DNA of 64,000 nucleotides from a virus (taxonomy: Duplodnaviria > Caudoviricetes). This document shows, one piece after another, positions 25,087 through 60,553 of this stretch. The stretch lies in the IMG/VR virus record IMGVR_UViG_3300003320_000853. The stretch is one strand, 5' to 3'. The notes beneath the pieces are model-generated. The model was not told the origin of the DNA and searched no databases. It saw nothing but the letters and a program-made list of their open reading frames with translations. The position numbers and the translations under genes were made by a program. Within the stretch, counting starts at the first letter, position 1, and each line of letters begins with the position of its first letter.

Positions 25087-25467
25087 ATGCGCCTCCTCCC
25101 CTCCGTCCTGAAAGCGAGATCCATTGCCAAGAGGCTGATCCGCTCCAAGGCCCGTAAGTCAGTTTACATTCCCAAGGGTCGTCAGGAAGAGCTGGGGGGC
25201 CCGTACACGCGGCTCCTCGGCCTCGAAAACGACTACGAGCAGAGAGCCCTGGAGGAATGGCAGGACCATCTCCAGGGCTGGGATCTCTCCCGGCCCCCCG
25301 AACGGAAGCAGCTCGTCGAGATCATCCTGTCCGCGGCCGAGGACGCTCTCTCGGATGCTCGCCGGTCTCTCGAAAGTGACGACCCGGAGACCACGCAGCT
25401 CCTCGACGAGTTCAAGGCACGGTTCGACGCCGATCTTCTTCTTCGGCCCCCTGTAGGAGAAGCATGA
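25087..25467 (+). CDS. hypothetical protein
   Basis: ORF tiles between neighbours; start uncertain. Confidence 0.65.
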   Translation: MRLLPSVLKARSIAKRLIRSKARKSVYIPKGRQEELGGPYTRLLGLENDYEQRALEEWQDHLQGWDLSRPPERKQLVEIILSAAEDALSDARRSLESDDPETTQLLDEFKARFDADLLLRPPVGEA

Positions 25468-25967
25468 AGCTCGGTGACCTGGTTCAATACAAGGGCACAC
25501 ATTGGATCGTCCGCCGCCACGACCCGAAGCGGACGCGCATGGCAACCCTTGTCGCGGCTTCGGGTCAGTCGGAGGAGGTCGCCCACGACTCTGACGCGAA
25601 GGGTCAGGTGGTCGTCATCGCGAACCCGTCCACTGAGTGGCCTTTCATCGTGCTCAAGGAGCGCCCGAAGTTCGGCAAGCTCGTCGAGATCATCCGCTTC
25701 CGGGGGATGACCGTCACGGCGCATCTCCAGCTCAACGTCGACTGGGTGCCGAGCGATCCGCTCCGGAGCGGGGGTGCCGTGTTTTTCTCGCCTACGCTCG
25801 GACTTCTCGTGGGCGAGACGCTCTCCGCGCTCCATGAGCACGGGCGGGCGTCTTTCACTGTTCCCGCGAACTTCACTACGGTGCGGGCACGGGTCGAGAA
25901 GGCAACTCCGAAGCCGAGGGAGCCGAAGTCGGCCTACGACCATCTCCTCGACGAGGACGAGCTGTGA
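25464..25967 (+). CDS. hypothetical protein with acidic C-terminal tag
   Basis: Ends KSAYDHLLDEDEL; AGGAG SD. Confidence 0.75.
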   Translation: MKLGDLVQYKGTHWIVRRHDPKRTRMATLVAASGQSEEVAHDSDAKGQVVVIANPSTEWPFIVLKERPKFGKLVEIIRFRGMTVTAHLQLNVDWVPSDPLRSGGAVFFSPTLGLLVGETLSALHEHGRASFTVPANFTTVRARVEKATPKPREPKSAYDHLLDEDEL

Positions 25968-26578
25968 AGCGGCAGCTCCCCGTCATCCTCGAACGCGATC
26001 TCAACAAGGTGCGGACAGAGCGGTACCTGCGTTCTGAGAATTTCGTGAATGGTGTGCGGGATTCGGCGGAGATTTCATGCTCCGTCGGATGCTCGGCGTG
26101 CTGCTCGCACCCTGTGATGATCGGCCTCCTCGAAGGCTTCCTGGTCTACCGTTGGCTCTCCTTGCATGGGATGTGGACGACCGATCTGCAAGCTCGTCTC
26201 CAGAAGCACGCGAACGAGACGTGGACGCTCGCCCATGAGGTCTGGTGGCTCAGCAACATCCCCTGCCCGCTCCTCGTGAACGATCGTTGCTCTGTCCATG
26301 AGGGTAGGCCTTTCGTCTGTCGGGTGACGCTCTCCACGGGCGACCCCGTTTTCTGTCATCCCCATCGCCTTGGGTTGGAGACGGGCATTGTCTCTCGTGC
26401 CGATGTGGTCGGGGAATTCCAGCGTCTGGAGGAGCAGAAGCTCCGGGCTCATGGTCTCGTGACCCTCCAGTTCCCGATCAGCAAGGCTCTGCTCCTCGCC
26501 GAGGCCATCCTTACCGGAACGCTCGCGATCGAAGCCGTGGCGGCCTTACTCGTGAAGGATTTCAGGGCTGAAGCATGA
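25964..26578 (+). CDS. YkgJ-like CxxxCxxCC cysteine-cluster protein
   Basis: CSVGCSACC, CPLL, CSVHEGRPFVCR. Confidence 0.85.
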   Translation: MKRQLPVILERDLNKVRTERYLRSENFVNGVRDSAEISCSVGCSACCSHPVMIGLLEGFLVYRWLSLHGMWTTDLQARLQKHANETWTLAHEVWWLSNIPCPLLVNDRCSVHEGRPFVCRVTLSTGDPVFCHPHRLGLETGIVSRADVVGEFQRLEEQKLRAHGLVTLQFPISKALLLAEAILTGTLAIEAVAALLVKDFRAEA

Positions 26579-26850
26579 AGTGCTGCGTCTGTTCCGCCGA
26601 CCGGGAGTGCGTCGTCCTCACACTCACCGACGACGAGAAGGCTGCCATCCGAGCCATGGGGCAGACGCCACAGGAGACCCTCGCCTACTGCCGGCCGTGC
26701 TTCCGTCTCCTGTCGAACCCCGAGCAGGGAGCGCAACTCATCCGGGGTACCTTCCAGGTCGGTCTCCAGAACGCGGGTATCGCGAACGCCGAGAAGCTGG
26801 CTCGCAGGTACTACGACTTCCTCCTCTCGAAGGCCAAGCGCCGCAACTAA
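26575..26850 (+). CDS. hypothetical Zn-finger protein
   Basis: CCVC...YCRPC. Confidence 0.7.
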   Translation: MKCCVCSADRECVVLTLTDDEKAAIRAMGQTPQETLAYCRPCFRLLSNPEQGAQLIRGTFQVGLQNAGIANAEKLARRYYDFLLSKAKRRN

Positions 26851-26863
26851 CCCGGAGACGAGC

Positions 26864-27430
26864 ATGAACGAGCAGCAAAGGCAGACCATCAAGGAGCTTC
26901 TCCAGAAGGCTGGGATCGATCCCGAGGGTCAGGACGTGGAGACTGCCTTCGCACAGATGGTGAAGGCGAGGATCCCGGGGATGTCCTCCCAGGCGCAGCA
27001 CACCGCCTTCATGTCGGGTTTCGACGCCTACTGTTTCACAATGCAGGCCATCTGCTCGGGCAACGCGGAGAACGAAGCGCTCGGGCGAAAGACGCTCTAC
27101 CAGGCGTTCGATGTTGCGAAGAAAGCCACCGAAGTCACCGAGAAGCTCCGGGAAGTGCCCGAAGCCGCGACGAGTGAGGCTTCGGAGGTGTTCAAGCGGC
27201 CCCCACCGGAGTTCGCCGAAGCTCAAGAGCAACAAGCACTTCTGGCCGAGCTGAACGCCATCTCAGACATCGCCGGACTCACCGAGTGGTACGTGGAGAC
27301 AAGGGCGCGGAGGGATCTGGTGCGAACGCAGAGCCTCCGCAACAAGCTCTACGACGCCATCCGTGAGCGACGCAACAATTTGACCGAGCGTTTGAGGATC
27401 TCGGTCGTGGAAGGACAGACAGAGGAATGA
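26864..27430 (+). CDS. hypothetical protein
   Basis: GGAG SD; helical composition. Confidence 0.7.
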   Translation: MNEQQRQTIKELLQKAGIDPEGQDVETAFAQMVKARIPGMSSQAQHTAFMSGFDAYCFTMQAICSGNAENEALGRKTLYQAFDVAKKATEVTEKLREVPEAATSEASEVFKRPPPEFAEAQEQQALLAELNAISDIAGLTEWYVETRARRDLVRTQSLRNKLYDAIRERRNNLTERLRISVVEGQTEE

Positions 27431-27822
27431 AGGTATTGGTTACTGGCGGTCGCGACTACATGAACCGCGACCGGATCCGTCAGGTGTTCGAGAAGCTCGC
27501 GGCGAAGTATAAGCGAGTCATCGTCGTCCACGGGGATTGCCCCACGGGTGCGGACCACATCGCGGACGAGCTGGCCAAGGAGTTCGGCTTCGAGGTGCGG
27601 CCCTATCCCGCCGACTGGGACCGAGCGGAGGCTGAGGGGCACCGGAATTCAGCCGGGCCGAAGCGCAACTCCACGATGATTCGGGAGGAGCATCCAGACA
27701 AGGATGGCACCCCCATCGATCTCTGCCTGGCCTTCACCACGGACCTCAAGCGCAGCCGCGGGACCAAGGATTGCTTCCAGAAGGCTGGCGCCGCGGGCAT
27801 CAAGGGTCTCGTCTTCGGCTAG
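27427..27822 (+). CDS. SLOG/YspA-like (DUF2493) protein
   Basis: VLVTGGRDY, VHGDCPTGAD, ADW...AGPKRN, SRGT. Confidence 0.88.
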   Translation: MKVLVTGGRDYMNRDRIRQVFEKLAAKYKRVIVVHGDCPTGADHIADELAKEFGFEVRPYPADWDRAEAEGHRNSAGPKRNSTMIREEHPDKDGTPIDLCLAFTTDLKRSRGTKDCFQKAGAAGIKGLVFG

Positions 27823-28005
27823 TTCAAGACCCTGCCCCATCTCCATGCGGGGTGCGGCCCGCGAAAGGCCCCCCAGAGGAACGTGCAGAGAAATCGAGGA
27901 TCCCCAGCTTCCCGTTGCTCTTGAATGTAGCGAAGGGCCGATGGCGAGATCCTGGGTCGAGGGTACATACGTGGAGGGTGCACCTGTTTGGTGTACCGTA
28001 CGGGC

Positions 28006-28215
28006 ATGGCCCGTACCATTCCCATCCCGACCCGCGAGGACGAGCGGATCTCCGCCTTCATGACGAAGCATGAGGCGGCCCACAAGGGCGTCGACGTGGG
28101 CGACATTGGGGGCCGGTACACCTACGAGATTACCCCGACGAGTCTCGGCACAAAGATCGTCATCCGGTGCGCGTGCGGCGACCATGCGGACGTGACAGCC
28201 TATGACGAGTGGTGA
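28006..28215 (+). CDS. small phage protein
   Basis: IGGRYTY..TPTSLG..C.CG..DVT.Y..W; GGTGTA 10 nt upstream. Confidence 0.75.
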   Translation: MARTIPIPTREDERISAFMTKHEAAHKGVDVGDIGGRYTYEITPTSLGTKIVIRCACGDHADVTAYDEW

Positions 28216-28216
28216 A

Positions 28217-28663
28217 ATGAACTACCGCATCGTCAACAACCTCTTCACGCCGATCGAACGGGTGCTGCTCCTCGGGATGGGGGATCTGACACCGGGATGG
28301 GTCCCAGGGAGGCAAGGCACGGGGTACGAGCGGGCTCCCGTCCAGTTCGACGAGCTGGAAGCTCGGTGCCTCAAAGAGCTGGGCGTCCCTCCCGAGACCG
28401 GGCACGACGCCTACCTCATCCGGTATCGGGAAGGTGCGTTCATCCCTCCCCACAAGGACGACGCGCCCTTCGGAACCGAGCACCGGAGGATCAACATCTT
28501 GCTCTCCCACGCCGAGGAGGGCGGCGTGCTCCGCTTCGATGGGGAAGTCATCGAGCTCGATGAGCTGGACGCGATCGTGTTCCGGCCCGACCTTGTCCTC
28601 CACGAAGTCTCGCCGGTCACGAAGGGCCAGCGTGTGCTCTGGACGGTGGGGGTGCTGGTGTAG
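28217..28663 (+). CDS. 2OG-Fe(II) oxygenase
   Basis: YLIRY, HKD, GG, HEVSPVTKGQR. Confidence 0.85.
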   Translation: MNYRIVNNLFTPIERVLLLGMGDLTPGWVPGRQGTGYERAPVQFDELEARCLKELGVPPETGHDAYLIRYREGAFIPPHKDDAPFGTEHRRINILLSHAEEGGVLRFDGEVIELDELDAIVFRPDLVLHEVSPVTKGQRVLWTVGVLV

Positions 28664-28672
28664 CCGGGGCGC

Positions 28673-29653
28673 ATGCCCAAGATCGAAAGTCTCAAGTCCG
28701 TCAAGACCATCGTCTGCCATGCGAATTGTTCGGATGGTCTCGCATCCGCGATGATCCTCCACAACGTGCTGCCGGACGCCAAGATCGTCTTCCTCCAGTA
28801 CAACACGCCCGAGCTGGCCGCCTTCGAGGCGACCGAGGGACAGCTCTGGTGTGATTTCTGCCCGCCGGCCGATCGTTTCCAGGAGTTCGTCGCGGCTGGT
28901 GCCATCGTGCTCGACCACCACAAGACTGCCAAGATCACCGTCGCGGAGTTCGGTGAGAACGGCGTATTCGCCGACGAGAAAGACGAGCCTGGGGTCTCCG
29001 GCGCGCTCCTCGCCTACCGTCACGTGTGGGTACCTCTAGCGGCGGAGTGGCACGCGGGGGTCGGTAGCGGGAAAGAGTACGCCCGCATCGTCGAACGCCT
29101 CGCCACCCTGGCGGGGATCCGCGACACTTGGCAACGCCAGAGCCCCGACTGGATGGCGGCAATGGCTCAGGCCGAGGCGCTCCAATTCTGGCCGAAGGAA
29201 GAGTGGCTCGACGAGGACGTGTGGGACTGGGGGGAGAAGGCCAAGATCGGCATGACCTTGCTCGCGAAGCACGCGGAGAAGGTCGACAAGGCCGTCAAGG
29301 GTAGCTTCCGTTTCACCTCGTCCAAGGGCAATCGCGTCCTCATGTTCCAGGGGGTGTCGACGACCAGCGACGCCGCCGAGAAGATCGGGGATGGGGCCGA
29401 TATCATCGTCGGCTTCCGGTACGAGACCGATGCCGAAGGGCACAAGATCGTTTTCTCGCTTCGGAGCCACACGGGCTTCGATTGCTCGAAGCTCGCGAAG
29501 GAACACCCGGGCGGCGGTGGGCACACGGCCGCCGCCGGGTTCGCCTATCGGTTTCGGGCCACTCACGACCCCTACCTTCTTTTCGAGGGGATGCTCGACG
29601 CCCATGAGCGGGGACTGTCTTGGCCCCAGGAGATGCCCCTGTGCCCTCGATGA
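28673..29653 (+). CDS. DHH/DHHA1 phosphoesterase
   Basis: HANCSDG, LDHH, SLRS, GGGH..AAG. Confidence 0.9.
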   Translation: MPKIESLKSVKTIVCHANCSDGLASAMILHNVLPDAKIVFLQYNTPELAAFEATEGQLWCDFCPPADRFQEFVAAGAIVLDHHKTAKITVAEFGENGVFADEKDEPGVSGALLAYRHVWVPLAAEWHAGVGSGKEYARIVERLATLAGIRDTWQRQSPDWMAAMAQAEALQFWPKEEWLDEDVWDWGEKAKIGMTLLAKHAEKVDKAVKGSFRFTSSKGNRVLMFQGVSTTSDAAEKIGDGADIIVGFRYETDAEGHKIVFSLRSHTGFDCSKLAKEHPGGGGHTAAAGFAYRFRATHDPYLLFEGMLDAHERGLSWPQEMPLCPR

Positions 29654-30114
29654 GGAGCCATGAGAGGGGTCAGAGGAAGCAACTCCGAGCTCTGGCCCAA
29701 CAGGTGAGCCGGAAGCTCGCCGACATCAACCAGCGGGTCAACATGCAAGCCTTCGGCTTCTCCCTCGCCCTGGTCTCGTCCCTTCTCGTGTCGGGCGTCT
29801 CGCGCTTCTCCACGCAGGGCGGTCGGCTCGACCGAGCTATCAAGCTCGCCGTCGAGCGAGGCGCCTTCACCCCGTGGAAGAACTCCCTCGCCTTCGTCGA
29901 CACCATGGTGGGTCTCCGCTGCGTCCAGTTGCAGGAGACCCTCTTGATCGCTCAGATGGCGGGGATCCTCTGGTTCGTGGGGCCGTCCTTCAACGAGGCC
30001 GAGATCGTCATCTCGGTCGAGACCGCAAGGACGATGCTCCGGAGCAACAAGCTCGACGAAGAGACGGCCCGGAGTTGGGGGGCCGCCTTGGTCGCGGCCC
30101 TCGCCGAGGTCTAG
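29650..30114 (+). CDS. hypothetical protein
   Basis: ATGA overlap. Confidence 0.6.
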   Translation: MRSHERGQRKQLRALAQQVSRKLADINQRVNMQAFGFSLALVSSLLVSGVSRFSTQGGRLDRAIKLAVERGAFTPWKNSLAFVDTMVGLRCVQLQETLLIAQMAGILWFVGPSFNEAEIVISVETARTMLRSNKLDEETARSWGAALVAALAEV

Positions 30115-30428
30115 CCGTTGTAGCTCTCGAAGCCGCGGGGGTCGGGCGGCGTCGTGTTCGGGATCTTGGTCCTGGCGAACTCGATCGCGCTGGATGCCGC
30201 ATTCGCGGCGGTTTCTCCCGCCGCGAAGACGCCGAGCAGGGCGTTGATGCGGGGGGCGTTCTTCTGAACGACCGCGATGGCCGCCATGACGTCGCCGATC
30301 TCCGCGCCGGTGAGGATCATCTGGAGGACGTGTCCGGCCCACTTGGCCTCGACGAGAGCCTTGCGGGTGTTGTTCAGCCCGTCGTGGGCGGCCATCAGCT
30401 TCTCGTGAGTCTCGTCTGCAATGAACAT
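30111..30428 (-). CDS. hypothetical protein
   Basis: GGTGTA 11 nt upstream on - strand; GGAG SD. Confidence 0.7.
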   Translation of the reverse strand: MFIADETHEKLMAAHDGLNNTRKALVEAKWAGHVLQMILTGAEIGDVMAAIAVVQKNAPRINALLGVFAAGETAANAASSAIEFARTKIPNTTPPDPRGFESYNG

Positions 30429-30529
30429 AGGGGTCTCCTTACACCAAGGCGCCCGTCACGGGCACGTCTTTCCTACAACGCTCTGGCGGCGCCGATCAAC
30501 ATTCTGTCTTTAGCCCGGCCTCCCGTAGG

Positions 30530-30805
30530 ATGGACATCGCTCGCCGGGTCGTTCTTCGAGTTCTTGGGCATCAGGTCGGGACGTTTACTCTCCCGAAAGA
30601 TCATCTCTTCGGGATGCGAGTACCCGATGGGGGGTCGAGCTGCGCCAAGTGCCTCTTCGTGAGCGACGACGGGAAGCACTGTGGTAACCCCTACTTCCAG
30701 GACTGGCGAAAATCTCTGAAGGAGAAGGATCCGAGCCTGCTCCCCCACCCGGCCGACAGCTATTGCTGCGACGTCTTTCAGGCGCAGGGGTCCGATGACA
30801 CCTAA
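30530..30805 (+). CDS. small Cys-rich protein with RVxxRV signal
   Basis: MDIARRVVLRV; CAKC..C..YCC. Confidence 0.7.
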   Translation: MDIARRVVLRVLGHQVGTFTLPKDHLFGMRVPDGGSSCAKCLFVSDDGKHCGNPYFQDWRKSLKEKDPSLLPHPADSYCCDVFQAQGSDDT

Positions 30806-35862: not shown

Positions 35863-36750
35863 CTAGAACTCCTGGTCGAGCTGCCCCAGGAGGTCGAAGG
35901 GGTCGGCTGCACGCGCGACTCCCTTGCCGAGAACGAGCACCTCGTTCACCGGGCCGCGGGCATCGCCCTTCGAGTTGATGCTCCGCCGAGCTTGGATGAT
36001 CTTGATCTCGAATCCCGCGTAGAGCTCGCGGATCTCGGAGGCGTCCGAATTCGATAGCATCACGGAGACCCCACGGTTGGACAGATCGCGGAAGACTTCC
36101 GCCAGCGCCTTCTGGTCGTCCATCGTGAAGTCGTCGGTCGTGTAGGACGTGAAGTCGCTCGTCTTCGAGACCGGGATGTATGGGGGATCGAAGTACACGA
36201 AATCATTGCGGAGAGCCGCCTCCTTGACCCAGGCGTAGCTCTCGTGCCTCACGTAGGTGCTCTGGAGAAGCTCTGAGCACGCGCGGATGTTCTCGGGGTC
36301 GTAGAAGTTGACGTTGATGTTCTTGCCCCACGGGGCGTTGAACTCGCCCTTCTTGTTCATCCTGTGGAGCCCGTTGAAGGCCGTCTTGTTGAGGAAGAGA
36401 AAGCGGGCTGCGCGCTCGATCTCGTTCGGAGGCTTGCCCGAACGGACGGCCTTGAAGACGGCTAGTGGATCGGCGTGCGATCGGTAAAGGTCGGCCATGC
36501 GATCCACGGCCTGCATGAACTCGACCGATCGACCCTGCACGATCGCATAGAGGTTGGTGAGCTCTTCGTTGAGGTCGCTGATGAAGGCCCGATTGAAGCG
36601 GCCCTCGGACGCGAGCCGCCAGAAGAGCGCGCCACCCCCAAGGAAGGGCTCGAAATAGGTCTCGATATTTTTGGGGATGTAGGGGAGGAGGTCGGGGAGC
36701 AGTTCGCGCTTACCGCCGACCCATTTGATGAAAGGTTTGGCGTCGGGCAT
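35863..36750 (-). CDS. dam: DNA adenine methyltransferase (D12/Dam class)
   Basis: KWVGGK, EPFLGGG, FNGL.R.N..G.FN.P.G, DPPY, MLSNS. Confidence 0.93.
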   Translation of the reverse strand: MPDAKPFIKWVGGKRELLPDLLPYIPKNIETYFEPFLGGGALFWRLASEGRFNRAFISDLNEELTNLYAIVQGRSVEFMQAVDRMADLYRSHADPLAVFKAVRSGKPPNEIERAARFLFLNKTAFNGLHRMNKKGEFNAPWGKNINVNFYDPENIRACSELLQSTYVRHESYAWVKEAALRNDFVYFDPPYIPVSKTSDFTSYTTDDFTMDDQKALAEVFRDLSNRGVSVMLSNSDASEIRELYAGFEIKIIQARRSINSKGDARGPVNEVLVLGKGVARAADPFDLLGQLDQEF

Positions 36751-37133: not shown

Positions 37134-37994
37134 CTACATGCCCGCCTTCGGGTTGATCAACCCGAGGAGCGTCATCTCCAGGAGAACTTTGTCGTTGACA
37201 GCCTTGTAGTTGATCCTACGGGTCGCGAGCGGATCAACCGCTTCCTCGAAGGGAGTCTCCACGGGTCGCCCTGAGATGCGGCTCGCCTCTTGGCAGAAGC
37301 GCTGGAAGGCCCGGTCGTGCCAGGGAGGCACCCAGGCTCCGCTGCGGCAGATGAAGATGCGATCGACGGTGCCGGAGACATCGCCCACCATGGGGTCGGG
37401 CCAGACGACGGGCTCAACCCGGGCGGACACGTTGAAGTCTTCCCGGCCGTCGTCGGTCGCCATGTCAGGGAACCGCTTTTCCATGATGTTCCAGTCCCGC
37501 ATCCCCTTCCATGCGGGGAAGACCACGAGGCTCGCGAGCTCGGGGTAGCGGAGCAGGGTCATCATCTGCCAGTTGTCGCACCCGGGATCTTCGTGGGCAA
37601 TCGAGGCTTCGAGCCCGGGGACGCTGTACAAGAGGTCGTGGTGCGCGTCGAAGTGAACAAGCTGGATCGTCTCCGGTCGCGGTCCCGTGCTGGCGTCGAA
37701 GGCGAAGTACGCCCACTTGTGGCTGTCCGCCACCACGAGGCTCCGCACCTGGTCGAAGCGGTAACTGAGGTTCTCCAGGGTCTTCCAGAAGGCTTTCGGC
37801 TTCGGGTTCGACCGGACGAGAGCCATCGACAGACGAAGGTCGACGCTGCCACCGCGAAGCTGGTGCTCCGCCAATCGCGCCGTCCAGGCGAACTCGATCC
37901 CCGTCTTCGTCTCCGAGTGGTTCCAGCCCCACCTGGAATCCTCGAAGACGAAGTAGTCGAAGTCGATGCTCAACCAGATGTGAGACCGACTCAC
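37134..37994 (-). CDS. UPF0489/arginase-fold-like metallo-protein
   Basis: SIDFDYF, DSH, FDAHHD, CDNW, CRSGAWVPP. Confidence 0.7.
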   Translation of the reverse strand: MSRSHIWLSIDFDYFVFEDSRWGWNHSETKTGIEFAWTARLAEHQLRGGSVDLRLSMALVRSNPKPKAFWKTLENLSYRFDQVRSLVVADSHKWAYFAFDASTGPRPETIQLVHFDAHHDLLYSVPGLEASIAHEDPGCDNWQMMTLLRYPELASLVVFPAWKGMRDWNIMEKRFPDMATDDGREDFNVSARVEPVVWPDPMVGDVSGTVDRIFICRSGAWVPPWHDRAFQRFCQEASRISGRPVETPFEEAVDPLATRRINYKAVNDKVLLEMTLLGLINPKAGM

Positions 37995-38260
37995 AGACCC
38001 TCGAATGGGTCGTCCCCCAGAAGGGCCTGCGCGACGGGGTTGGGTTTCGGAGGGACGTAGATGTCTACGATTGCGTTGTATCCGAAGGGCTCCTTGACGA
38101 GGAGCCCCGCCTTGCACAGTGCCTTGAAGGCTTCGGCCGGCAACCGGATCGACCCGTTCCCCAACCTGATGAGGGCACGTCCATCCTGGTGGACGTAAAC
38201 GACCTGGATTGGATCCGCCTTCCGGAAGAATTCCTCGAATGAGCCGTCGTCCTTGCTCAC
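37991..38260 (-). CDS. small protein with acidic C-terminal tag
   Basis: Ends PVAQALLGDDPFEGL. Confidence 0.7.
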   Translation of the reverse strand: MSKDDGSFEEFFRKADPIQVVYVHQDGRALIRLGNGSIRLPAEAFKALCKAGLLVKEPFGYNAIVDIYVPPKPNPVAQALLGDDPFEGL

Positions 38261-39023: not shown

Positions 39024-39323
39024 TCACCCCAGATCGTCGTTGAGGAGCACTTCCCACGCCGTAGGACGGTGCTTGGGTACGAATGCTCCTGGCGGGTAAT
39101 ATTTCACGAGACCGCTGCAACGGGTGCAATAGTTGATCGTCCCGCCCTTCTTGAAGCGTCCCGAGTCTTCCGGGATCATGTGGGTCTTGCGATCCCTCGG
39201 GTGATGCGGACACCCCTTCTGGGAAGCTTCAAAGAGATCCCGGAGCAACGCCTTCTCTTTCTCGTCACCCTTCCGGATGGACCGGACGAATTTGCGGAGC
39301 AGGGTGTTATTCTCGTATCCCAT
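39024..39323 (-). CDS. small Zn-finger protein with acidic C-terminal tag
   Basis: CPH..CTRC; ends PTAWEVLLNDDLG; GGAGG SD. Confidence 0.7.
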   Translation of the reverse strand: MGYENNTLLRKFVRSIRKGDEKEKALLRDLFEASQKGCPHHPRDRKTHMIPEDSGRFKKGGTINYCTRCSGLVKYYPPGAFVPKHRPTAWEVLLNDDLG

Positions 39324-40027
39324 CAGTCCTCCTCCTGGATGGGTACTTCCCATGCGGTACAGGGTTCGTCCACGGGGGCAACGACCTCAGCCACGGGAGC
39401 AAAGCTCCGCCGGTGGATCGGACAGGGGCCAAGCCGTTGGAGAGCTTCCCGATGGATGTTGCCCTTGCCTGCGTACCCCTTGTTCGAGACGAAATTGTAC
39501 CCGGGGTAGAGCTTGTCCGCTTCGATCATCATCCGGTCACGAAGGGTCTTGCCGATGAGGCTCGCCGCTGAGACCGCCGGGACATGCCCGTCCGCCCGCG
39601 GTTCGGAATAGATCCCGTTGCCGAGCGGAAGCGCACCATCGGCGATGCAGAAGGCGTCTGGGACTTCGCGCCGGAGCGCTTCGTGGAGATGCTGGTGAGC
39701 ACGGATGAGGGTGGCGTAGATCCCCTGATCATCGAGCTTGTCATGCGGCGTCTCGTGTATGAGGAAGCGCACCAGCGGGTCGGCGCGGATCGCATCGGAG
39801 AGGCGTTCGCGTTCAGCCTCTTTCTTGACCTTCTTCGAATCGGTCACCCCGGGCGGAGGTGCCCAGTTCCCCGGCACGAGGACGCCCACGACGACGAGGG
39901 GCCCAGCCCACGCGCCGTAGCCTACCTCGTCGGTGCCAATGACCCACGGAGCTTCGCGGGCGGCGCGAAGCACGTCCTCGGGGAAGTCCTCGTAGGTCGG
40001 GGCAGAGCGGAGACGGGCGAGAGGCAT
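39323..40027 (-). CDS. rnhB: ribonuclease HII
   Basis: GTDEVGYGAWAGP, DSKK, DG, VSAASLIGK..RD, HRRSF. Confidence 0.93.
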   Translation of the reverse strand: MPLARLRSAPTYEDFPEDVLRAAREAPWVIGTDEVGYGAWAGPLVVVGVLVPGNWAPPPGVTDSKKVKKEAERERLSDAIRADPLVRFLIHETPHDKLDDQGIYATLIRAHQHLHEALRREVPDAFCIADGALPLGNGIYSEPRADGHVPAVSAASLIGKTLRDRMMIEADKLYPGYNFVSNKGYAGKGNIHREALQRLGPCPIHRRSFAPVAEVVAPVDEPCTAWEVPIQEED

Positions 40028-46367: not shown

Positions 46368-46799
46368 GTGACCCAGGCACAGATCATGGACAGGGGACGA
46401 TGCCCCGCTTGTGGCCGTAGGAACGAGCACATCACACCTTTCGTGCTCACCCTCGGGGGGTATACGGCACGTGCCCCTTGGTGCAATGAGCAAGCGCGCT
46501 GTCCGACCCTGTCCGTCGAGGAACGCAAGGATCCGGATCTGTGTGAATACCAGACGCGCCTCACGCCCAAGATGATCGAATCTCTTGACCCCGGGATTCG
46601 TGAGCGTGTTCTCCGGGCCCGTGAAAAGGGTTGGTCCACGCTGTTCTCCTGTGACGGGCATGGAAAGCACGACGCCTACATCACGTTTTGGGATGCCGCC
46701 CATCGTGACGAAGCGATGTCTTTCTTCGGAGGCACGGCCGAGGACAAGCAGAGCCGCTTGCTCGGCCCCCTTTACAACCTCCGCTTCCCGAGGGACTGA
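46368..46799 (+). CDS. hypothetical protein
   Basis: CPAC; LDPGI...TLFSCDGHG. Confidence 0.65.
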   Translation: MTQAQIMDRGRCPACGRRNEHITPFVLTLGGYTARAPWCNEQARCPTLSVEERKDPDLCEYQTRLTPKMIESLDPGIRERVLRAREKGWSTLFSCDGHGKHDAYITFWDAAHRDEAMSFFGGTAEDKQSRLLGPLYNLRFPRD

Positions 46800-46969
46800 T
46801 GAACCCGGACGACAAAGTCTTCGATCGGTGCTTCTTCTGTCGGGGGGAGGGCTACTTCCCGCAGAAGAAGCCTCACATCTGCCCGGGATGCCGCAGCAAC
46901 TACAAACTCATGGCGCTCCTGCCTCCACCGACGGTCTGGGAGCGCCTCTTGGAGGAGGACGGTTTATGA
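46799..46969 (+). CDS. small Zn-finger protein with acidic C-terminal tag (not in ORF track)
   Basis: CFFC..CPGC; ends [14 protein letters not shown]; TGATG coupling. Confidence 0.7.
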   Translation: MNPDDKVFDRCFFCRGEGYFPQKKPHICPGCRSNYKLMALLPPPTVWERLLEEDGL

Positions 46970-50434: not shown

Positions 50435-50902
50435 ATGGGAATCCCCAAGCTCACGAAGGCCGAGCTGACGCGCCGGAGCCGGATCATCCGGCCCATCTTC
50501 CGTACCGACGAGGGGATCTTCTACCAGAAGGTCGACAACCTGGACACGAGCCTCGTCTGGGATCCGAAGCCCGAGGCTCCAGCGGTCGGGCTGTACACGG
50601 TCACGGTCGTACGAACGCTGCACACGTTCAATTACTACGGGATGTTCAAGCCTTCGGCTGCCGAGGTGCTCTGCCAGATCCCCGAGGGTTGGCTCGACCA
50701 TGTCGTGGCGTACGAGCTTTGTGGTCCGAAAACCGCTGACGACCTCAATCGTGAGCGGGAGGCGGTGAACGCAGGCTTCCACGTTTCGGAGACCATCCTC
50801 TATGGCGTGAACAAGGAAGCCGTACGCAAGGAAGACCTCCAGCCGAAGACCCCGCTCGCGAAGGCACTCCTTGGGGATGACGATCCCTTCGAGAACTCCT
50901 GA
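50435..50902 (+). CDS. hypothetical protein with acidic C-terminal tag
   Basis: TLH..YYGMFKPS.AEV..QIP; ends PLAKALLGDDDPFENS. Confidence 0.75.
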   Translation: MGIPKLTKAELTRRSRIIRPIFRTDEGIFYQKVDNLDTSLVWDPKPEAPAVGLYTVTVVRTLHTFNYYGMFKPSAAEVLCQIPEGWLDHVVAYELCGPKTADDLNREREAVNAGFHVSETILYGVNKEAVRKEDLQPKTPLAKALLGDDDPFENS

Positions 50903-53838: not shown

Positions 53839-54050
53839 GCGACGAGAAGAAGCTGAAAGCTGGGGACACGGTCAGGCTGAAGTGCGGCATCGGCCCGATC
53901 ATGATGTTGGAGACGGGAGAGTTCGGGTCGATGCACACGTGCATCTGGTTCGACAAGAACAACCAGCTCCAGTCCCACAACTTCCCCGCCGACTTCCTGA
54001 AGCCCGTCGAGCTCGACGGCCGCACCGGGGATCGTGAAATGGACTGTTGA
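53835..54050 (+). CDS. YodC/DUF2158-like protein
   Basis: GDTVRLK.G.GP.M...C.WF. Confidence 0.75.
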   Translation: MSDEKKLKAGDTVRLKCGIGPIMMLETGEFGSMHTCIWFDKNNQLQSHNFPADFLKPVELDGRTGDREMDC

Positions 54051-54080
54051 TCGACGCCGGCTCCACGCTGTAGTGGGGCC

Positions 54081-54392: not shown

Positions 54393-54421
54393 GGACCCCT
54401 TCCGGTGTAGATCATGCTCCT

Positions 54422-56944
54422 ATGCCCAATACCAATTCCGCATCCTACCAGATCGCCAACGGGCTCTTCCTCGTCCTCTCGACCCTGACGGGCGAGACGG
54501 CGAAGCCCGCGGCTCCCTCGGGGGCGAACCATTTCGTGGTCATCGACCGCTCGGGCAGCATGTACGGGGTCATGCCCCGCATGCGCGAGCAGTTCAAGTC
54601 GAAGATCCTCGGCCTCATGAAGGACGGGGACACCCTCACCCTCCTCGTGTTCTCCAGCCGGGATCAGTTCACGACCGTCCTGGAGGGCGTCTCCGTCGCG
54701 ACGCTCAAGGATCTCCGCGACGTCCACAATCGGATCGATCGCGAGCTTCGCGCGACGAACTTGACCGGCTTCAAGGATCCCCTCGACGAGGTCAGCCGGC
54801 TCGTCGGCCGCGTGAAGTCGAAGAACCCCGGCCCGTGCGATCTCTGGTTCCTCTCGGACGGCTACGACAACCAGTGGAGCCGCCCGCAGATCCTCAAGGC
54901 GATGGCGGACGCCTCGAAGGAAATGGCCGCTGTCACCGTGGTCGAGTTCGGGGACTACGCCGACCGCGCTCTCCTCGCCGAGATGGCCACCGTGGCGGGC
55001 GGCAAGCACATCTACGCCGAGGACTTCGACGCCTACGAGCCCGTTTTCGAGACGGCCATGGCGAGCACGGGCAGCGGCGCCCCCAAGGTCGAGGTGCCCG
55101 TCGAGGGCGACCCCATCGGCGGCTTCGCGTTCGCGCTCTCCGGGAGCGACCTCCTGAGCTCCTCGGTCGTCAACGGTCACGTCGCGGTGCCCGCCGACCT
55201 CAAGACGTTCGCGTACCTCTCCCCGTCCCCCGTGGGCATCGACGAGAGGTCGGGCCTTCCGGATCGCTTGAATCCGAAGGATCCCAGCACCATGCAGTTC
55301 CTCGCACACGCGTACGCGGCCCTGAGCCTCTTCTCCGTCCGCATGCGGAGCGATCTCGTCTTCCCGATCCTCAAGGCGCTCGGCGACGTGAAGTTCGTGA
55401 AGGACTTCTCCGTGTGCTTCGGGAAGCAGCGCTACTCGGTCTTCATGGACTCGACGCGGGCGGCGGCCTTCGGTACCGGCCGGTTCGCCCAGGGCTACGA
55501 CCCCAGCGCCGTCCCCCCGGACGACTGCTTCACCATCTGGACGCTGCTCTCGATCCTGACCGAGGAGAAGGGCGCGAAGCTCCTCATCGACCGCTTCGCG
55601 GACGGCTACAAGAAGGTCGGCCGCGCCACCGTGAACGCCTCCGAGAAGCTCACCAAAGAGGAGGCCGAGAAGGTCGCGGCCCTCCAGGTGCAGATCGACG
55701 AGATCACCACCAAGACCGCGGGCGCCAAGGGGACGAAGCTCCTCAAGTCGGCCGCCGAGGAGAAGGCCAAGCTCCAGGCCGAGATCGACGCCATCCTGGC
55801 GAGCAAGAAGGACCCCCCGAAGTTCGAGGCGGATCCCTGCCCCGAGGGCATCGACATCACGGGCCTCGTCTTCAACGAGGAGCAGCCGAACATTTCCATC
55901 CAGACCAAGCGCACGGGCAAGGTCAACATCGAGGAGGCGGTGGACGCGGCCATCGCGGACCCGGCGAACGCGGCCATCGTCCCGAGCCTCAAGAAGCTGC
56001 CCCGTGTGATCGACAGCTTCCAGTTCAGGAACTACGCGATCGTCAAGGACGGCCTGGTCAACGTGGACGAGCTGCCGGTCACGATGCCCCGTGCCATGTG
56101 GGACAAGCTTCTCGCGGCGGGTCTCTCGATGGACGCCATCACCGAGATCGGCAACCTCCACGCGAACGGCGACGTCACTGTGAGCTTCAAGCTCCGCCAG
56201 ATCCCGGTGATGAACCGGGCGATGGTCAAGGCGGCCAGCGGTCGGCAGCTCTTCGAGCTGGAGTACAACCTCTGCCGCGCCAAGGCGGCCCAGAAGGTCT
56301 ACAACAGCCTCAAGAAGGAGGCAGCGGGCGAGAGGGTCTCCGCGGGCTTCGAGGCGGCCTACGGCGCCGAGGCGGCCAAGTGGCTCAAGGAAGGCCCGCT
56401 CGGGCTCACCGACTACAGCGGCTACGGCCCCAAGCGTGTCCAGGCGGATCCCGTGGACTTCTATATGGGCAAGTTCTTGAACGTGCTCATCTACGAGGAG
56501 GGGGCACTGGCGGCCATCGCCGCTGGCAAGACGGCTCAGGGCAAGCTCGACTCGCTTCCGACCGTCAAAGAGGCCGAGGAGGCCCGCACCAAGGGCGGCA
56601 AGCTCAAGGGCGGCAAGGCGCTCATGGCCGACGTGCTGGCCGAGGTCGAGACCCAGAAGAAGGCGCTCGACAACGACACGGCGTTCACCGCGTGGCTCGT
56701 CGAGAAGCAGGAGGAGACCGTCAAGGAGACGCGCCGGCTCATCCTGGAGAAGGCCCGCTTGGCCTTCGTCCTCCTCGTCGGCCAGGTGTGGTTCACCGAG
56801 CCGGAGTTCGCCGTGCCCGTCGAGATCACCCTCAAGGGCAAGAAGGATGACAAGAAGCTCCTCGGCTCGACGCACACCTTCACCCACGCCGGCCAGAAGT
56901 TCGATTTCATCGCCGGCCAGGAAGAGCGCAAGGTTCTGATCTAG
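54422..56944 (+). CDS. large vWA domain protein
   Basis: MIDAS DRSGSM, T, FLSDGY; strong GC3 bias. Confidence 0.88.
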   Translation: MPNTNSASYQIANGLFLVLSTLTGETAKPAAPSGANHFVVIDRSGSMYGVMPRMREQFKSKILGLMKDGDTLTLLVFSSRDQFTTVLEGVSVATLKDLRDVHNRIDRELRATNLTGFKDPLDEVSRLVGRVKSKNPGPCDLWFLSDGYDNQWSRPQILKAMADASKEMAAVTVVEFGDYADRALLAEMATVAGGKHIYAEDFDAYEPVFETAMASTGSGAPKVEVPVEGDPIGGFAFALSGSDLLSSSVVNGHVAVPADLKTFAYLSPSPVGIDERSGLPDRLNPKDPSTMQFLAHAYAALSLFSVRMRSDLVFPILKALGDVKFVKDFSVCFGKQRYSVFMDSTRAAAFGTGRFAQGYDPSAVPPDDCFTIWTLLSILTEEKGAKLLIDRFADGYKKVGRATVNASEKLTKEEAEKVAALQVQIDEITTKTAGAKGTKLLKSAAEEKAKLQAEIDAILASKKDPPKFEADPCPEGIDITGLVFNEEQPNISIQTKRTGKVNIEEAVDAAIADPANAAIVPSLKKLPRVIDSFQFRNYAIVKDGLVNVDELPVTMPRAMWDKLLAAGLSMDAITEIGNLHANGDVTVSFKLRQIPVMNRAMVKAASGRQLFELEYNLCRAKAAQKVYNSLKKEAAGERVSAGFEAAYGAEAAKWLKEGPLGLTDYSGYGPKRVQADPVDFYMGKFLNVLIYEEGALAAIAAGKTAQGKLDSLPTVKEAEEARTKGGKLKGGKALMADVLAEVETQKKALDNDTAFTAWLVEKQEETVKETRRLILEKARLAFVLLVGQVWFTEPEFAVPVEITLKGKKDDKKLLGSTHTFTHAGQKFDFIAGQEERKVLI

Positions 56945-57006
56945 ACAGAACGGTCACACACAAGCCTTGTAAAATCCGCTTTCCCCGGATCTACATGGTG
57001 TACGCT

Positions 57007-57030
57007 GGGGCAGCCCAAGGAGGCTGCCCC
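57007..57030 (+). promoter_or_regulatory. hairpin overlapping ribosome-binding site
   Basis: GGGGCAGCC-CAAGGA-GGCTGCCCC ends directly before ATG 57031. Confidence 0.65.
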
Positions 57031-57903
57031 ATGCGTTTGATCAAGTTGTTCCCGTTGCTCGTCCTGCTCGCGACTCTTCTCGGTTGCTCGTCCAGCCCGC
57101 CCCCCGACTCGTTCACGATCACGGCGAGCCCCGCGACCGTGTCGTCCGGCGCCGAGATTCTCTACCTGTGCGAGTCTTTCGACGCTCCATCAACTCCCTC
57201 GATGGTGACGAAGATCCTGCCCAAGTACGGACAGGGTACTCACCACCTCGATGTCTTTCAGGCGTTGGCTCCCGAGCCGAAGGGCGTTTGGATGTGCCCC
57301 GAGGTTTGGAAGAGCACGTGGCTCCCGGTGTCCATCTTCGGTACGACGCCCGACGCGATCGACGTGCCGGCCGGCTATGCGATCCAGATCCCGGCTGGCG
57401 CCCAGCTCGTGATGCAGCGGCACTTGCTGAACGCGACCAGCATGCCCCTGGACACGACGGCGAGCGTCACCTTCAGCTTGACCCACGACGAGAGCGCCCA
57501 GAAGGCGGGCGGGTTCGGGTTCGAGTCGACGATGATCTCGATTCCCCCCGGCTCGGCGAACTTCCCGGTCACGACCTCGTGCGTGGTTCCGTCGGATAGG
57601 CACATCTGGGATGCCTTCTTCCACATGCACCAGCTCGGCAGCCACGCCGAGCTCTCGCTCAATGGCGAGCGGATCATCTCCCAGGTCGACACGTGGAGCT
57701 TCACCAATCAGCCGCACTTCGCGGTCGATTTCGACTTGAAGAAGGGCGATGTGGTCACCCTCACTTGCTACTACAACAACGACACCGCGGACACGGTCGT
57801 CTACGGGCCCTCGACCACGAACGAGATGTGTGCGTGGGAGGGTCTCGGCTTCCCGTGGGTCGAGTACGACGGCTGCATCGACGGCCAGCCGGTCACGCTC
57901 TGA
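57031..57903 (+). CDS. copper type II ascorbate-dependent monooxygenase-like lipoprotein
   Basis: Lipobox LLGC; THHL, HLLN, HMHQLG, NEMC copper-ligand pattern. Confidence 0.85.
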   Translation: MRLIKLFPLLVLLATLLGCSSSPPPDSFTITASPATVSSGAEILYLCESFDAPSTPSMVTKILPKYGQGTHHLDVFQALAPEPKGVWMCPEVWKSTWLPVSIFGTTPDAIDVPAGYAIQIPAGAQLVMQRHLLNATSMPLDTTASVTFSLTHDESAQKAGGFGFESTMISIPPGSANFPVTTSCVVPSDRHIWDAFFHMHQLGSHAELSLNGERIISQVDTWSFTNQPHFAVDFDLKKGDVVTLTCYYNNDTADTVVYGPSTTNEMCAWEGLGFPWVEYDGCIDGQPVTL

Positions 57904-57932
57904 CGGTCTGCGCCCCGGTGTAGCACCGGAGC

Positions 57933-58496
57933 ATGATCGACCTCCGTCAGTTCCTCATCCATAACATCGTCCAGGGGGTCTTCTATGACCCTGTTGCCCC
58001 TGGAGTGGCCAACCTCCTCTCCGACGTCGCAATCTTCGACGTGAGCGGGCTTGCCCCCGTCTTCGTTCTCGGCGCGTTGGGTGAGAGCATCACCCGGCAA
58101 ACAGGCCCTCGCGTCATCGCTCCCTATGTCGAATTCTCGGGAAGCTACGGGGAGGTCGAGCTTGCGATCCAGGAACGGATCCGCTCGCTTCTGGAAGCCC
58201 GAGGCCGAGAAGCTCACGCGGATGAGCCTACCGCGGTACAAGCGACTCGTTTGCAGGAGACGCTTCTGCATGGGCTACCTTCCAGCCAGCCGCTCAAGCA
58301 CATCATCGTCCCCAACGAGGAGATGAAGGCCAGGATCCTCCCCCATGTCACCGTGCCGGTCGGCGTTTTCGGAGGCATGAGCTTCGTCCTGGGGATCTCG
58401 GAGCCGAAATTCGTGGGTCACCTCGTGACTCACACGAAGCACGGGCTGGCGATGTTGGTACACGGCGGCGTGGTCGCCGCTCTGCTCGCCCCCTGA
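57933..58496 (+). CDS. hypothetical protein
   Basis: GGTGTA 10 nt upstream. Confidence 0.7.
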   Translation: MIDLRQFLIHNIVQGVFYDPVAPGVANLLSDVAIFDVSGLAPVFVLGALGESITRQTGPRVIAPYVEFSGSYGEVELAIQERIRSLLEARGREAHADEPTAVQATRLQETLLHGLPSSQPLKHIIVPNEEMKARILPHVTVPVGVFGGMSFVLGISEPKFVGHLVTHTKHGLAMLVHGGVVAALLAP

Positions 58497-58524
58497 AGTC
58501 TACGCTCCGGTGTAGCTCCGGGGC

Positions 58525-59811
58525 ATGGCTCATCGAAAAGCCTCGACACGACGTATTGAGGTTTACGGCATCTCCGGCAGCAAGGGGCATGGCAAGGACA
58601 CCTTCGCCAACCTCATCCTCCGGGTACATCCTGGGTTCAGAATTCTGCATTTTGCGGACTCTCTGAAGCGGATGTCCACTCGGATCTTCGGGCTGACGAA
58701 CGCGCAGATGAACGACCCAAATCTCAAAGAAGCGCCCCTCGGACGACCCCTCGACATGGACCCCTATGTCCCTGCTATGTGCAAGGAGACTGGGCTCCTG
58801 ATCCAGCCTGCGGGGAAGGTAGCCCATAGCCCGCGGGAGGTCATGCAATTCTTTGGAACGGAGTATGTGCGTCGAGCACAGGATGACTACTGGGTCCAGA
58901 GGTTGCTCGCCGAGGTAGGAACCTCGCACCGCATTCTTATCCCCGATGCGAGGTTCCTGAACGAGACGGAGGCTCTTCGATCAATCGGAGGGATCATCAT
59001 CAAGATCGAGAGGATCGACGCTCCACCCCCCAAAGACGGACACGCCTCGGAAACCGAGATGGCCAAGATCGTTCCCGACCTCCTCGTTGGAGCCAAGACG
59101 GGGGACCTGTCCCTTCCGATGAGGGTCGCGACCCTCATCGCGGTGAACCGTTTCGAGGCGGCTTCCAGCTACGACTACCGAAAGGCTCAAGCGGCGATCC
59201 AATCCTACACATCAGGGCGGGGAGCGGAGGCGAGCGCACTGTTGCTTGGACACAAGCATTCCTACGCGCTTTACAACATCCTGGACTACTATGGGATCCT
59301 CCGTCGGAGGCAGGCTGCGAACCGCATCCAACACGAGACGGTCGACGGTGTCGTGGGGAAGCGCTGCATCAAGTGCGTGTGGAGACCCCTTACCGAGTTC
59401 AACGCGAGCACCAAGGCGTGGGACGGAAAGCACAGTCTATGCCGGGATTGTGCGTCCAAGGACAACCAGGCGCGATACCAAAAGCATGGGAAGACGGACA
59501 CCCTGTTGAGAATCTTCATGGCCTCGAAGAAACAGGCTGCGTACCGTGGCATCTCCTTCAATCTGGACTATGCCGACGTCCAAATGCTATGGGATGACCA
59601 GAGGGGCCGCTGCAAGTACAGCGGGTTGGAGATGACTCCCGAACCCAAGTCTCCCAACAAGATCACGATCGATCGGATCGACTCCTCGAAGGGCTATGAG
59701 AAGGGGAACGTCGTCCTTTGTAGCTACCGCGTCAACCTGATGAAGCGCGAGATGTCCCTGAAGGAGTTCCGTGAGATGATTCAGGTACTCCATGCACATC
59801 TGATGGTGTAG
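58525..59811 (+). CDS. deoxynucleoside monophosphate kinase fused to HNH-type endonuclease
   Basis: GSKGHGKDT, FAD.LK, PREVMQ..GTE, DARF.NE, HASE; then CKYSG, IDRIDSSKGY..GNV..C...N.MK. Confidence 0.85.
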   Translation: MAHRKASTRRIEVYGISGSKGHGKDTFANLILRVHPGFRILHFADSLKRMSTRIFGLTNAQMNDPNLKEAPLGRPLDMDPYVPAMCKETGLLIQPAGKVAHSPREVMQFFGTEYVRRAQDDYWVQRLLAEVGTSHRILIPDARFLNETEALRSIGGIIIKIERIDAPPPKDGHASETEMAKIVPDLLVGAKTGDLSLPMRVATLIAVNRFEAASSYDYRKAQAAIQSYTSGRGAEASALLLGHKHSYALYNILDYYGILRRRQAANRIQHETVDGVVGKRCIKCVWRPLTEFNASTKAWDGKHSLCRDCASKDNQARYQKHGKTDTLLRIFMASKKQAAYRGISFNLDYADVQMLWDDQRGRCKYSGLEMTPEPKSPNKITIDRIDSSKGYEKGNVVLCSYRVNLMKREMSLKEFREMIQVLHAHLMV

Positions 59812-59820
59812 GGTCACGCC

Positions 59821-60195
59821 ATGGGACATCTGGTTCTTGGCGTTTTCTATGGGTGTGTGGTTCCTGACGATCTCACGCTTCGCAAAAGGGTCGGGGAGCC
59901 GGGGGAGGACGAGCTCCTCGACAAATGGGACGCCACGAAGGTGAACCGCAAGCTCGGGCTGGACACGACCGGCCTTGGGGACAAGCACCTCATCGGCTTC
60001 TGGCTCGGCGTGGGTGGAGACGATCGTCGGGCACCGGACATCTCGGAGAAGTGCCTGGTCTTCACCGTCATCGAGAAGTCGAAGGAGGCGAAGCGGGCCA
60101 TCGAGTCCTGGAAGGCGTTCGCCACCTTCTCGAAGAACAACGGGGTCCACCTCCCCACGCCGACGTTCTGGATCGCGCCCCTGGAGATCGCCTGA
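59821..60195 (+). CDS. hypothetical protein
   Basis: GGTGTA 10 nt upstream. Confidence 0.7.
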   Translation: MGHLVLGVFYGCVVPDDLTLRKRVGEPGEDELLDKWDATKVNRKLGLDTTGLGDKHLIGFWLGVGGDDRRAPDISEKCLVFTVIEKSKEAKRAIESWKAFATFSKNNGVHLPTPTFWIAPLEIA

Positions 60196-60362
60196 TGCTC
60201 ACCGAAGAACAGAGAGCGAAGAGTCGAGCCGAGAGCGACCGGCTCTGGAAGCAGGCGGGTCGAGAAGTTCTGATCGAGACGCTGGCGAGGGAGATCCCGC
60301 TCCTCCTCTGGCGTATCGCCATCGCTGCCACGATCTTCAGGGTGTGGTGGCCGAGGCACTGA
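60195..60362 (+). CDS. small membrane protein
   Basis: TGATG coupling; hydrophobic C-terminus. Confidence 0.55.
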   Translation: MLTEEQRAKSRAESDRLWKQAGREVLIETLAREIPLLLWRIAIAATIFRVWWPRH

Positions 60363-60553
60363 AGTACCGGGCGACGCAGGAGTTCTACTACTCCTTGATG
60401 CTCGGGGACATCACCGTCCACAAGGGCGAGATCGTGTCGGACTGGACGGTCAAAGAGTACCATCTGGAGGAGGCTATCGAGAATGGGTGGCTCGTCCCAG
60501 CCGATCCTCCAACTTGGCACCAACGGCTCGACGAGGACCCTTTCGGAGCGTGA
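60347..60553 (+). CDS. small protein with acidic C-terminal tag
   Basis: Ends PPTWHQRLDEDPFGA; start uncertain. Confidence 0.6.
   Translation: MAEALKYRATQEFYYSLMLGDITVHKGEIVSDWTVKEYHLEEAIENGWLVPADPPTWHQRLDEDPFGA

Follow-up and report, generated by a model that had tools for sequence, protein, structure and literature searches.

C-terminal tails in the window

The stretch of DNA considered here, 64,000 nucleotides of a tailed phage (Caudoviricetes; IMG/VR record IMGVR_UViG_3300003320_000853) and hereafter called the window, encodes several small proteins with dissimilar bodies that end in similar acidic peptides, which we call the tag. A first-pass annotation of the sequence had quoted six such tails, and all six translate exactly as written, so that the observation is confirmed (Table 1). 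Its description of the surroundings also holds: no similarity was found among the carrier bodies, a Pro/Lys linker stands ahead of the tail in the window carriers, and none of them has a motif like RVxARF, of which 13 occur in other window proteins. The window has 63% G+C and tightly packed genes, with 98 proteins in a gene call based on codon bias.

Relatives were found through the ClpX and the Cdc48-like ATPase of the window, as IMG/VR contigs of 87-407 kb. Eight of them (250-407 kb; G001, G002, G003, G006, G007, G008, G009 and G010) were taken whole and make up, together with the window, the nine genomes referred to below; those of G007 and G009 are covered only to about one half. Sixty-two proteins are common to all eight relatives. 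At the DNA level the window matched no phage record, single-protein searches of viral contigs returned no orthologues for two of the carriers, which were recovered only from the whole relatives, and a strict DNA pattern for the tag proved too narrow in these relatives. No close cultured relative with proteomics was found.

Some details of the first-pass annotation have to be corrected. The last carrier had been given as 59975-60553, but the real gene begins at 60344 and encodes 69 residues (p69): the upstream part of the open reading frame is a non-coding shadow frame overlapping two real genes, and the orthologues in G001 and G002 have 62 residues and the C-terminal end PPTWQERLLADD[LI]* (the asterisk marks the stop). 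The carrier that ends at 50902 probably starts at 50435. RNase HII and the Dam methylase had been listed as weaker matches. RNase HII (Pfam RNase_HII, E = 5e-25), the top non-member in several leave-one-out scans, possesses the first half of the tag but not the rest (PCTAWEVPIQEED); its orthologues in G001 and G002 end in SWEVDL, and the one in G003 has nothing similar. Dam is not a member, as its tail is a distinct conserved C-terminal motif, kept as DPFxx[LM]xxLxxEF* in G001 and G002 and absent from the shorter G003 orthologue, which may be a docking motif of a separate kind.

Table 1. Coordinates of tagged proteins, candidate readers and other features (window positions unless another contig is named)
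Feature	Position	Strand	Remarks
Tag PKSAYDHLLDEDEL	25923..25964	+	end of p167 (gene 25464-25967); 24.8 bits, relatives-only profile
Tag RPTAWEVLLNDDLG	39027..39068	-	end of 99-residue zinc-ribbon-like protein (gene 39024-39323); 31.2 bits, best match of the window
14-residue tag	46925..46966	+	end of 56-residue CxxC...CxxC protein (gene 46799-46969), with weak Pfam matches of zinc-ribbon type; 30.5 bits
Tag PPTWHQRLDEDPFGA	60506..60550	+	end of 69-residue p69 (gene 60344-60553); 16.3 bits
Subclass tag NPVAQALLGDDPFEGL	37994..38044	-	end of 89-residue p89 (gene 37991-38260); 8.9 bits, top leave-one-out rank
Subclass tag TPLAKALLGDDDPFENS	50849..50899	+	end of 155-residue p155 (gene 50435-50902)
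Partial/degenerate tag PCTAWEVPIQEED	39326..39364	-	end of RNase HII (gene 39323-40027)
Dam methylase tail DPFDLLGQLDQEF	35866..35904	-	Pfam MethyltransfD12; separate motif
Phage ClpX	17130-18389	+	intact C4 zinc-binding N-domain, GYVG pore loop, LGF ClpP-docking loop; weakened candidate reader
Cdc48/p97-like double-ring AAA+	2890-4506	+	degenerate D1; models and aligns as D1-D2; candidate reader module
p398, orphan partner of 398 residues	4499-5695	+	overlaps the Cdc48-like gene, translationally coupled
RVxARF-like N-terminal motifs	11885-34156		e.g. 14968, 19450, 20025, 33368
Long family A polymerase, 903-1043 residues	L012:7319-10180	-	window holds only the C-terminal half, 2-1549
Sliding clamp	L031:4343-5602 (G003); G001 219634-220914	+ (L031)	Pfam beta N- and C-domains below threshold
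266-residue orphan	24256-25056	+	SSB-like layout
p167, first 52 residues	25464-25620	+	barrel in model
ClpX of G003, 775 residues	L040:61-2388; G003 280061-282388	+ (L040)	insertion at Walker A loop
Five adjacent paralogues of G009	G009 248500-255233 (L156)		368-526 residues

The tag consists of a flexible linker rich in Pro, Lys and Ala and a predicted amphipathic helix of 7-8 residues, in which an aromatic residue and two aliphatic ones share the same side (aromatic-x-x-Leu-Leu) and which is capped by an acidic pair, usually followed by one more hydrophobic residue; the whole lies 0-8 residues from the end. In an AlphaFold2 model computed on the p167 alignment (mean predicted local distance difference test score, pLDDT, 85.6), the all-beta body is followed by a coil at residues 148-156 and a helix at 157-163, which spans AYDHLLD at lower confidence; this is what one would expect of a helix that folds when it binds. 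The barrel modelled at the beginning of p167 is of a Tudor/KOW/SH3-like kind, and its nearest structures are RNA-polymerase-binding Tudor domains (CarD and the C-terminal domain of PcrA/UvrD), at Z 6.5-6.9, which is within noise. As a lead, the body fold was abandoned, because it yielded only this Tudor/KOW-like barrel with Z below 7.

The tails of p89 and p155 form a subclass of their own, [LVF]-[AGS]-[KQR]-A-L-L-x-acid-acid, which the orthologues of p155 keep as TPFGKALLDD[GE]IG*. Six-frame translations of the nine genomes contain ten matches to this ALLxDD subclass, six of them C-terminal and from at least four families. DDPF is found in three of the six window tails, always 2-4 residues before the end.

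The likeness of the tails was examined in several ways. In leave-one-out profile scans over 18,529 positions the held-out tail was the best match outside the training set in five of six cases and the tenth in the sixth, and a profile made from the relatives alone, with no window sequence in it, gives four window tails 16-31 bits and p89 8.9 bits. When the proteins were shuffled 200 times, C-terminal matches at 8 bits or more numbered 0.035 on average and one at most. Six-frame scans of the window and three relatives placed 74 of 103 profile matches (72%) with their end 0-8 residues before a stop, against a base rate of 17%. The comparison of C-termini with controls that had been suggested as a check of the tag took the form of a prior-free de novo search in a reduced alphabet, in which aromatic-x-x-aliphatic-x-acid-acid came out as the most enriched pattern of G001 (4.2% of tails vs 0.44% of interior windows, P about 4e-13). 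A crude all-against-all comparison of tails, underpowered and superseded by the profile tests, had put the flagged pairs on top, only marginally above controls. The codons of the tag vary synonymously (Leu as CTC, CTT, CTG and TTG, Asp as GAC and GAT, Pro as CCN), so that conservation acts at the level of the protein and the tag is not a DNA repeat. A preference for TGA stops, tied to the UGA-reading tRNA of the genome, was dismissed as chance: it holds for seven of seven cases in the window, but for 42 of 76 across the clade vs a background of 64% (P = 0.11).

Occurrence and dialects in related phages

The tag is present in seven of the eight related contigs, with about 2-29 tails in each, and is lacking in G009. 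At the threshold of 11 bits used for counting, C-terminal copies number about 29 in G001, 26 in G002, 13 in G003, 11 in G006, 7 in G008, 9 in G010 and about 2 in G007; for the other relatives the counts are too low, as the training set of the profile comprised G001-G003 and the window. Between 5 and 8% of the proteome is tagged, roughly one gene in twelve to sixteen. Most carriers are small accessory orphan proteins, 79% of them of no more than 200 residues, and the few with known domains comprise an ArdC-like anti-restriction protease, protein kinases, a nucleotidyltransferase and a peptidoglycan glucosaminidase. A few copies stand at the N-terminus, directly after the start methionine, or inside acidic or Pro-rich internal linkers, the internal ones including two orthologous protein kinases; such positions fit a docking peptide rather than a degron anchored by its carboxylate.

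Each lineage has a dialect of its own: PT[AV]W[ED]xLLxDD in the window, G001, G002 and G010, [ST]RF[DES]R[IV]LxDD in G003, [TD]A[FWY]DxL[LM]xEDLF* in G006 and TA[HW]xRLMGDDEY* in G008 (in short form PTAWExLLxDD, xRFxRILxDD, xAYDKLMDEDLF and TAHRRLMGDDEY). The same differences are seen inside single orthologous families, namely p167 and a family of 191 residues. Such a drift in concert within a lineage is expected of a docking peptide with one co-evolving reader. An enriched tail pattern in G009 was considered as a further, divergent dialect and rejected, as it belongs to five adjacent paralogous genes with a common C-terminal domain (...WLPWDG.T.P.G*) and is no portable tag.

The core tagged family is p167, which is found in all nine genomes with a body identity of 27-51%. 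Eight of its nine orthologues carry a recognisable tag behind a variable, indel-rich linker of Ala, Pro and Lys; the G003 tail reads NRFTRLFNDDDD, and that of G009 has decayed to STLFRLLKDPE. Despite indels in the linker, the tag is likewise conserved among orthologues in the 191-residue family, p69 and p155. Whether homologues in other phages lack the tail had been posed as a question, and some do: the tag was gained or lost on orthologous bodies of RlaP (tag in G003, a truncated form in G001, an end right after the fold in G006 and G009), and on the ArdC-like protein and the glucosaminidase it is restricted to a single lineage.

Outside the clade the tag is nearly absent. Back-translated, the exact motif (19 fixed bases) has a single match in 596 Gb of cellular genomes (185,579 species genomes), where about two would be expected by chance, and this match is internal, in a metagenome-assembled genome of Faecalibacterium; among viral contigs there are three matches, all from the clade or its samples. 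The tag is thus specific to the clade and not a copy of a common cellular motif.

Other products that can be recognised in the window are a family A DNA polymerase, thymidylate synthase, DHFR, a D12 Dam methylase, RNase HII, a topoisomerase IB core, NAMPT/NrtR, a transglycosylase, a Cdc48-like AAA+ protein and a full ClpX. The topoisomerase IB represents a eukaryotic-type catalytic core (PF01028, E = 2e-29); together with NAMPT, NrtR, NUDIX and SLOG-family genes it forms an island of NAD and nucleotide metabolism.

Reading of the tag and rival explanations

That the tails are portable docking peptides, as had been proposed, is well supported by the unrelated bodies, the presence or absence of the tag on orthologous enzymes, selection at the protein level and the linker with its modelled helix. 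With a probability of about 0.7 we read them as a genuine short linear docking motif, specific to this clade of huge phages, which tethers its carriers to one reader that co-evolves with it. The idea of one hub stands in so far as the concerted drift of each lineage fits a single co-evolving partner, but no hub was identified. The tag is independent of RVxARF and thus makes up a second address code, as had also been suggested. The form of RVxARF hardly varies within the clade; it has 2-12 N-terminal copies in each of the relatives except G007, which has none, and it is kept in G009, so that the two codes are decoupled.

In the mechanism we favour, the peptide would tether each carrier to the common reader through a hydrophobic groove flanked by basic residues, and this binding site would change together with the tag, resulting in a dialect in each phage lineage; with one reader in common, the carriers would then serve a single hub as its clients or adaptors. 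Tethering would most likely follow the manner of SspB, which the architecture matches: the body binds something and the terminal peptide, on its linker, docks on a receptor associated with an unfoldase, which would go on to process the carrier or anything bound to it. Such a receptor is probably a protein of the phage that evolves fast, and not the conserved zinc-binding domain of ClpX. In favour of the tethering reading it counts that two AAA+ unfoldases, ClpX and the Cdc48-like protein, are core genes of the clade. The Cdc48-like gene and p398 are kept as a pair in all nine genomes, adjoining the polymerase; p398 is a fast-evolving core protein (26-34% identity), for which the protein atlas gave no usable lead. 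We rank the options in the order of a fast-evolving phage receptor tied to an unfoldase, ClpX, virion loading, a host hub and the clamp.

Several observations weigh against a single co-evolving reader. Screens for presence and absence and a test for relaxed constraint in the tag-less G009 yielded no reader and no outlier, and no binding partner of the tag was predicted or shown. All genomes encode ClpX with its zinc-binding domain, also G009, where it persists without the tag, and the Cdc48-like ATPase, both in the model and in the alignment, is without an N-terminal adaptor domain. Both window tails of the ALLxDD subclass have no aromatic residue where the tag normally has one, and their way of using the reader might differ. 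Finally, since G007 and G009 are about half complete, their low tag counts may partly reflect sampling. Individual candidates did not fare better: p398, the top candidate of the phyletic screen, turned out to be a gene-calling artefact, p398 being present in all genomes; a 96-residue candidate is an acidic coiled-coil protein from the central part of the genome (102-233 kb) with a weak homologue in G007; the remaining ones lie in regions missing from the partial contigs; and the Cdc48-like ATPase was found to have neither a MIT nor a coiled-coil reader domain.

A bolder and tentative version, to which we give little weight, is that the tagged miniproteins are an adaptor library encoded by the virus: each small body would recognise a host or phage target of its own, and through the common tail this target would be passed to one phage machine, to be removed or relocated, while RVxARF would serve ClpX as a second, independent code. 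The machine could be an unfoldase module, such as the Cdc48-like ATPase with its orphan partner, or a receptor so far unrecognised.

Among the alternatives, that there is no functional tag at all, the likeness of the tails being due to chance and composition, to a common origin of the carriers or to a DNA repeat that is translated, has in its favour that acidic C-termini are common and that the crude tail comparison was marginal against controls; it is refuted by the profile, shuffle, six-frame and de novo tests, all of which reject chance, by the unrelated bodies and the synonymous variation of the tag codons, and by the conservation of the tag across orthologues. A degron or tether for the phage ClpX, with the zinc-binding domain as the docking site of the tail and with unfolding of the carrier or its bound target, or degradation by way of the host ClpP, as the outcome, is an unlikely alternative. 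For it speak a core gene with intact C4 zinc finger, GYVG and LGF (the RKH loop being replaced) and the terminal position on a linker known from AAA+ tethering peptides such as the XB tail of SspB. However, ClpX and the invariant RVxARF persist in G009, in which the acidic tag has decayed, so that this hub of the original proposal is weakened; the tag drifts between lineages while ClpX stays 51-69% identical, the 0-8 residues after the core are unlike a carboxylate-anchored degron, and a phage ClpP was not found in three relatives, one of them complete. Moreover, the basic LRVVK of SspB is far closer to RVxARF than to an acidic helix, and this likeness, together with the decoupling of the two codes, makes ClpX a better candidate for reading RVxARF than the acidic tag. 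The ClpX of G003 has an insertion of about 350 residues at its Walker A loop that looks like an intein.

Slightly less likely still is a virion-loading signal, by which tagged proteins, docked by their tails on the scaffold or the inside of the procapsid, would be packaged and injected with the DNA. The carriers with known domains do resemble ejected cargo (ArdC-like protease, kinases, nucleotidyltransferase, glucosaminidase), and a C-terminal peptide on a linker matches the architecture of encapsulin cargo, but most carriers are tiny orphans, the sequence of the tag is unlike known cargo peptides, and the tagged genes occupy the accessory and replication arms, with none in about 102-233 kb of G001, a stretch known only as flanking the clamp gene. 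The virions of phage G, a distant comparison, contain ClpX and ClpP (PMC12484599). Mimicry of a host motif, with the tail docking on a host hub (RNA polymerase, partners of the single-stranded DNA-binding protein, SSB, or a host protease) and the dialects tracking hosts, appears improbable. It would agree with the range of G+C among the phages, from 0.53 to 0.68, from which their hosts probably differ, with DDPF in half of the window tails, which recalls SSB tails, and with the weak likeness of the p167 N-domain to RNA-polymerase-binding Tudor domains, at a Z within noise. On the other hand, the exact motif is absent from the species genomes except for the one internal chance match, and DDPF never stands at the extreme C-terminus, as SSB-tail pockets require. 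No canonical SSB (PF00436) was found in these phages; the 266-residue orphan of the window has a layout like that of SSB, with a folded N-part, a long linker of Ala, Pro and Lys and a conserved tail, STDD[IV]Lx[DE]AGxxLxGPFG*. Still less probable is a binding motif for the beta-type sliding clamp of the phage or another replisome hub. A divergent, fast-evolving clamp (PHROG 947; 32-40% identity) is encoded across the clade, in seven of eight relatives and not on the contig of G010, clamps read short terminal peptides, and RNase HII has a partial tag. Against this, there are kinases, a cell-wall hydrolase and orphan miniproteins by the dozen among the carriers, the tag is unlike QL[SD]LF, the clamp is present in the tag-poor G007 and G009, and Pol A, of family A and the only DNA polymerase (no DnaE or PolB), lacks the tag, which weakens a clamp-type reader in the replisome, one of the hubs that had been named. 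None of its eight orthologues reaches 11 bits; the best, in G007 (8.5) and G006 (7.0), are internal, and six of the eight have no match of at least 3 bits. Instead, Pol A begins in every lineage with another acidic-hydrophobic peptide (e.g. MADEFDDDDIDFL and MSQIDDDLDFEALL), followed by a Pro/Ala linker, which may be a docking motif for the clamp or the helicase.

Our literature search found no published description of such a clade-wide tag. Known terminal docking peptides belong to single adaptors, encapsulin cargo or clamp clients, and a label that extends over a whole clade and has dialects is new to the searchable literature. The tag is a common handle on dozens of otherwise unannotated orphan proteins, and once the one reader is identified, all carriers could be placed in a pathway together. 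Experiments could use the dialects as an internal control of specificity, and the tag could serve synthetic biology as a compact orthogonal docking pair.

Comparison with known docking peptides

Among known systems SspB of E. coli offers the same layout, in which a long flexible linker joins the folded body to a short docking peptide at the terminus (XB), and an AAA+ unfoldase with an N-domain of the XB-binding type, ClpX, is encoded nearby in the window. The XB peptide docks on the zinc-binding N-domain of ClpX as an extended strand with the consensus LRVVK, which the phage motif RVxARF resembles. The acidic tag (P-T-A-W-E-x-L-L-x-D-D), modelled as a helix, differs from this basic, extended peptide. 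Furthermore, XB is confined to one adaptor family, in contrast to a tag on 5-8% of the proteome, and the phage ClpX persists where the tag is lost. Degrons of the ssrA type hold a fixed register to the alpha-carboxylate and have non-polar last residues, whereas the tag is followed by 0-8 variable residues and some of its copies are N-terminal or internal.

Encapsulin cargo-loading peptides and the capsid-targeting sequences of T4 address proteins to a shell related to phage capsids, and they share with the tag that a portable terminal peptide is found on unrelated proteins. The sequence class is different, though. Encapsulin cargo genes are linked to the shell gene, and the cargo binds inside the shell; the tagged genes lie outside the central part of G001 (102-233 kb). 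Clamp-binding motifs (bacterial QL[SD]LF, the eukaryotic PIP box and the C-terminal peptides binding gp45 of T4 and RB69) are likewise short hydrophobic and acidic terminal peptides on many clients, and the likeness extends to the clamp that the clade itself encodes. The tag profile, however, departs from the beta-clamp consensus QL[SD]LF/QxxLxxF in that Gln is missing from its columns, the aromatic residue precedes Leu-Leu by three positions and the cap is acidic. The phage polymerase is without the tag, and most of the tagged clients are no DNA enzymes.

Flexible tails that end in an acidic helix rich in Leu are also known from ESCRT-III, whose MIM helices are bound by the MIT domain of Vps4, and from Pup, bound by the coiled coil of Mpa. 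MIM and Pup helices are read by an accessory domain of a classic-clade AAA+ ATPase, whereas the Cdc48-like ATPase of these phages models as D1-D2 only, with no MIT, coiled-coil or N-domain. The tail of SSB (DDDIPF-COOH), in turn, combines an acidic run with Pro-Phe at the extreme terminus, and in this it differs from the three window tails in which DDPF is followed by 2-4 more residues.

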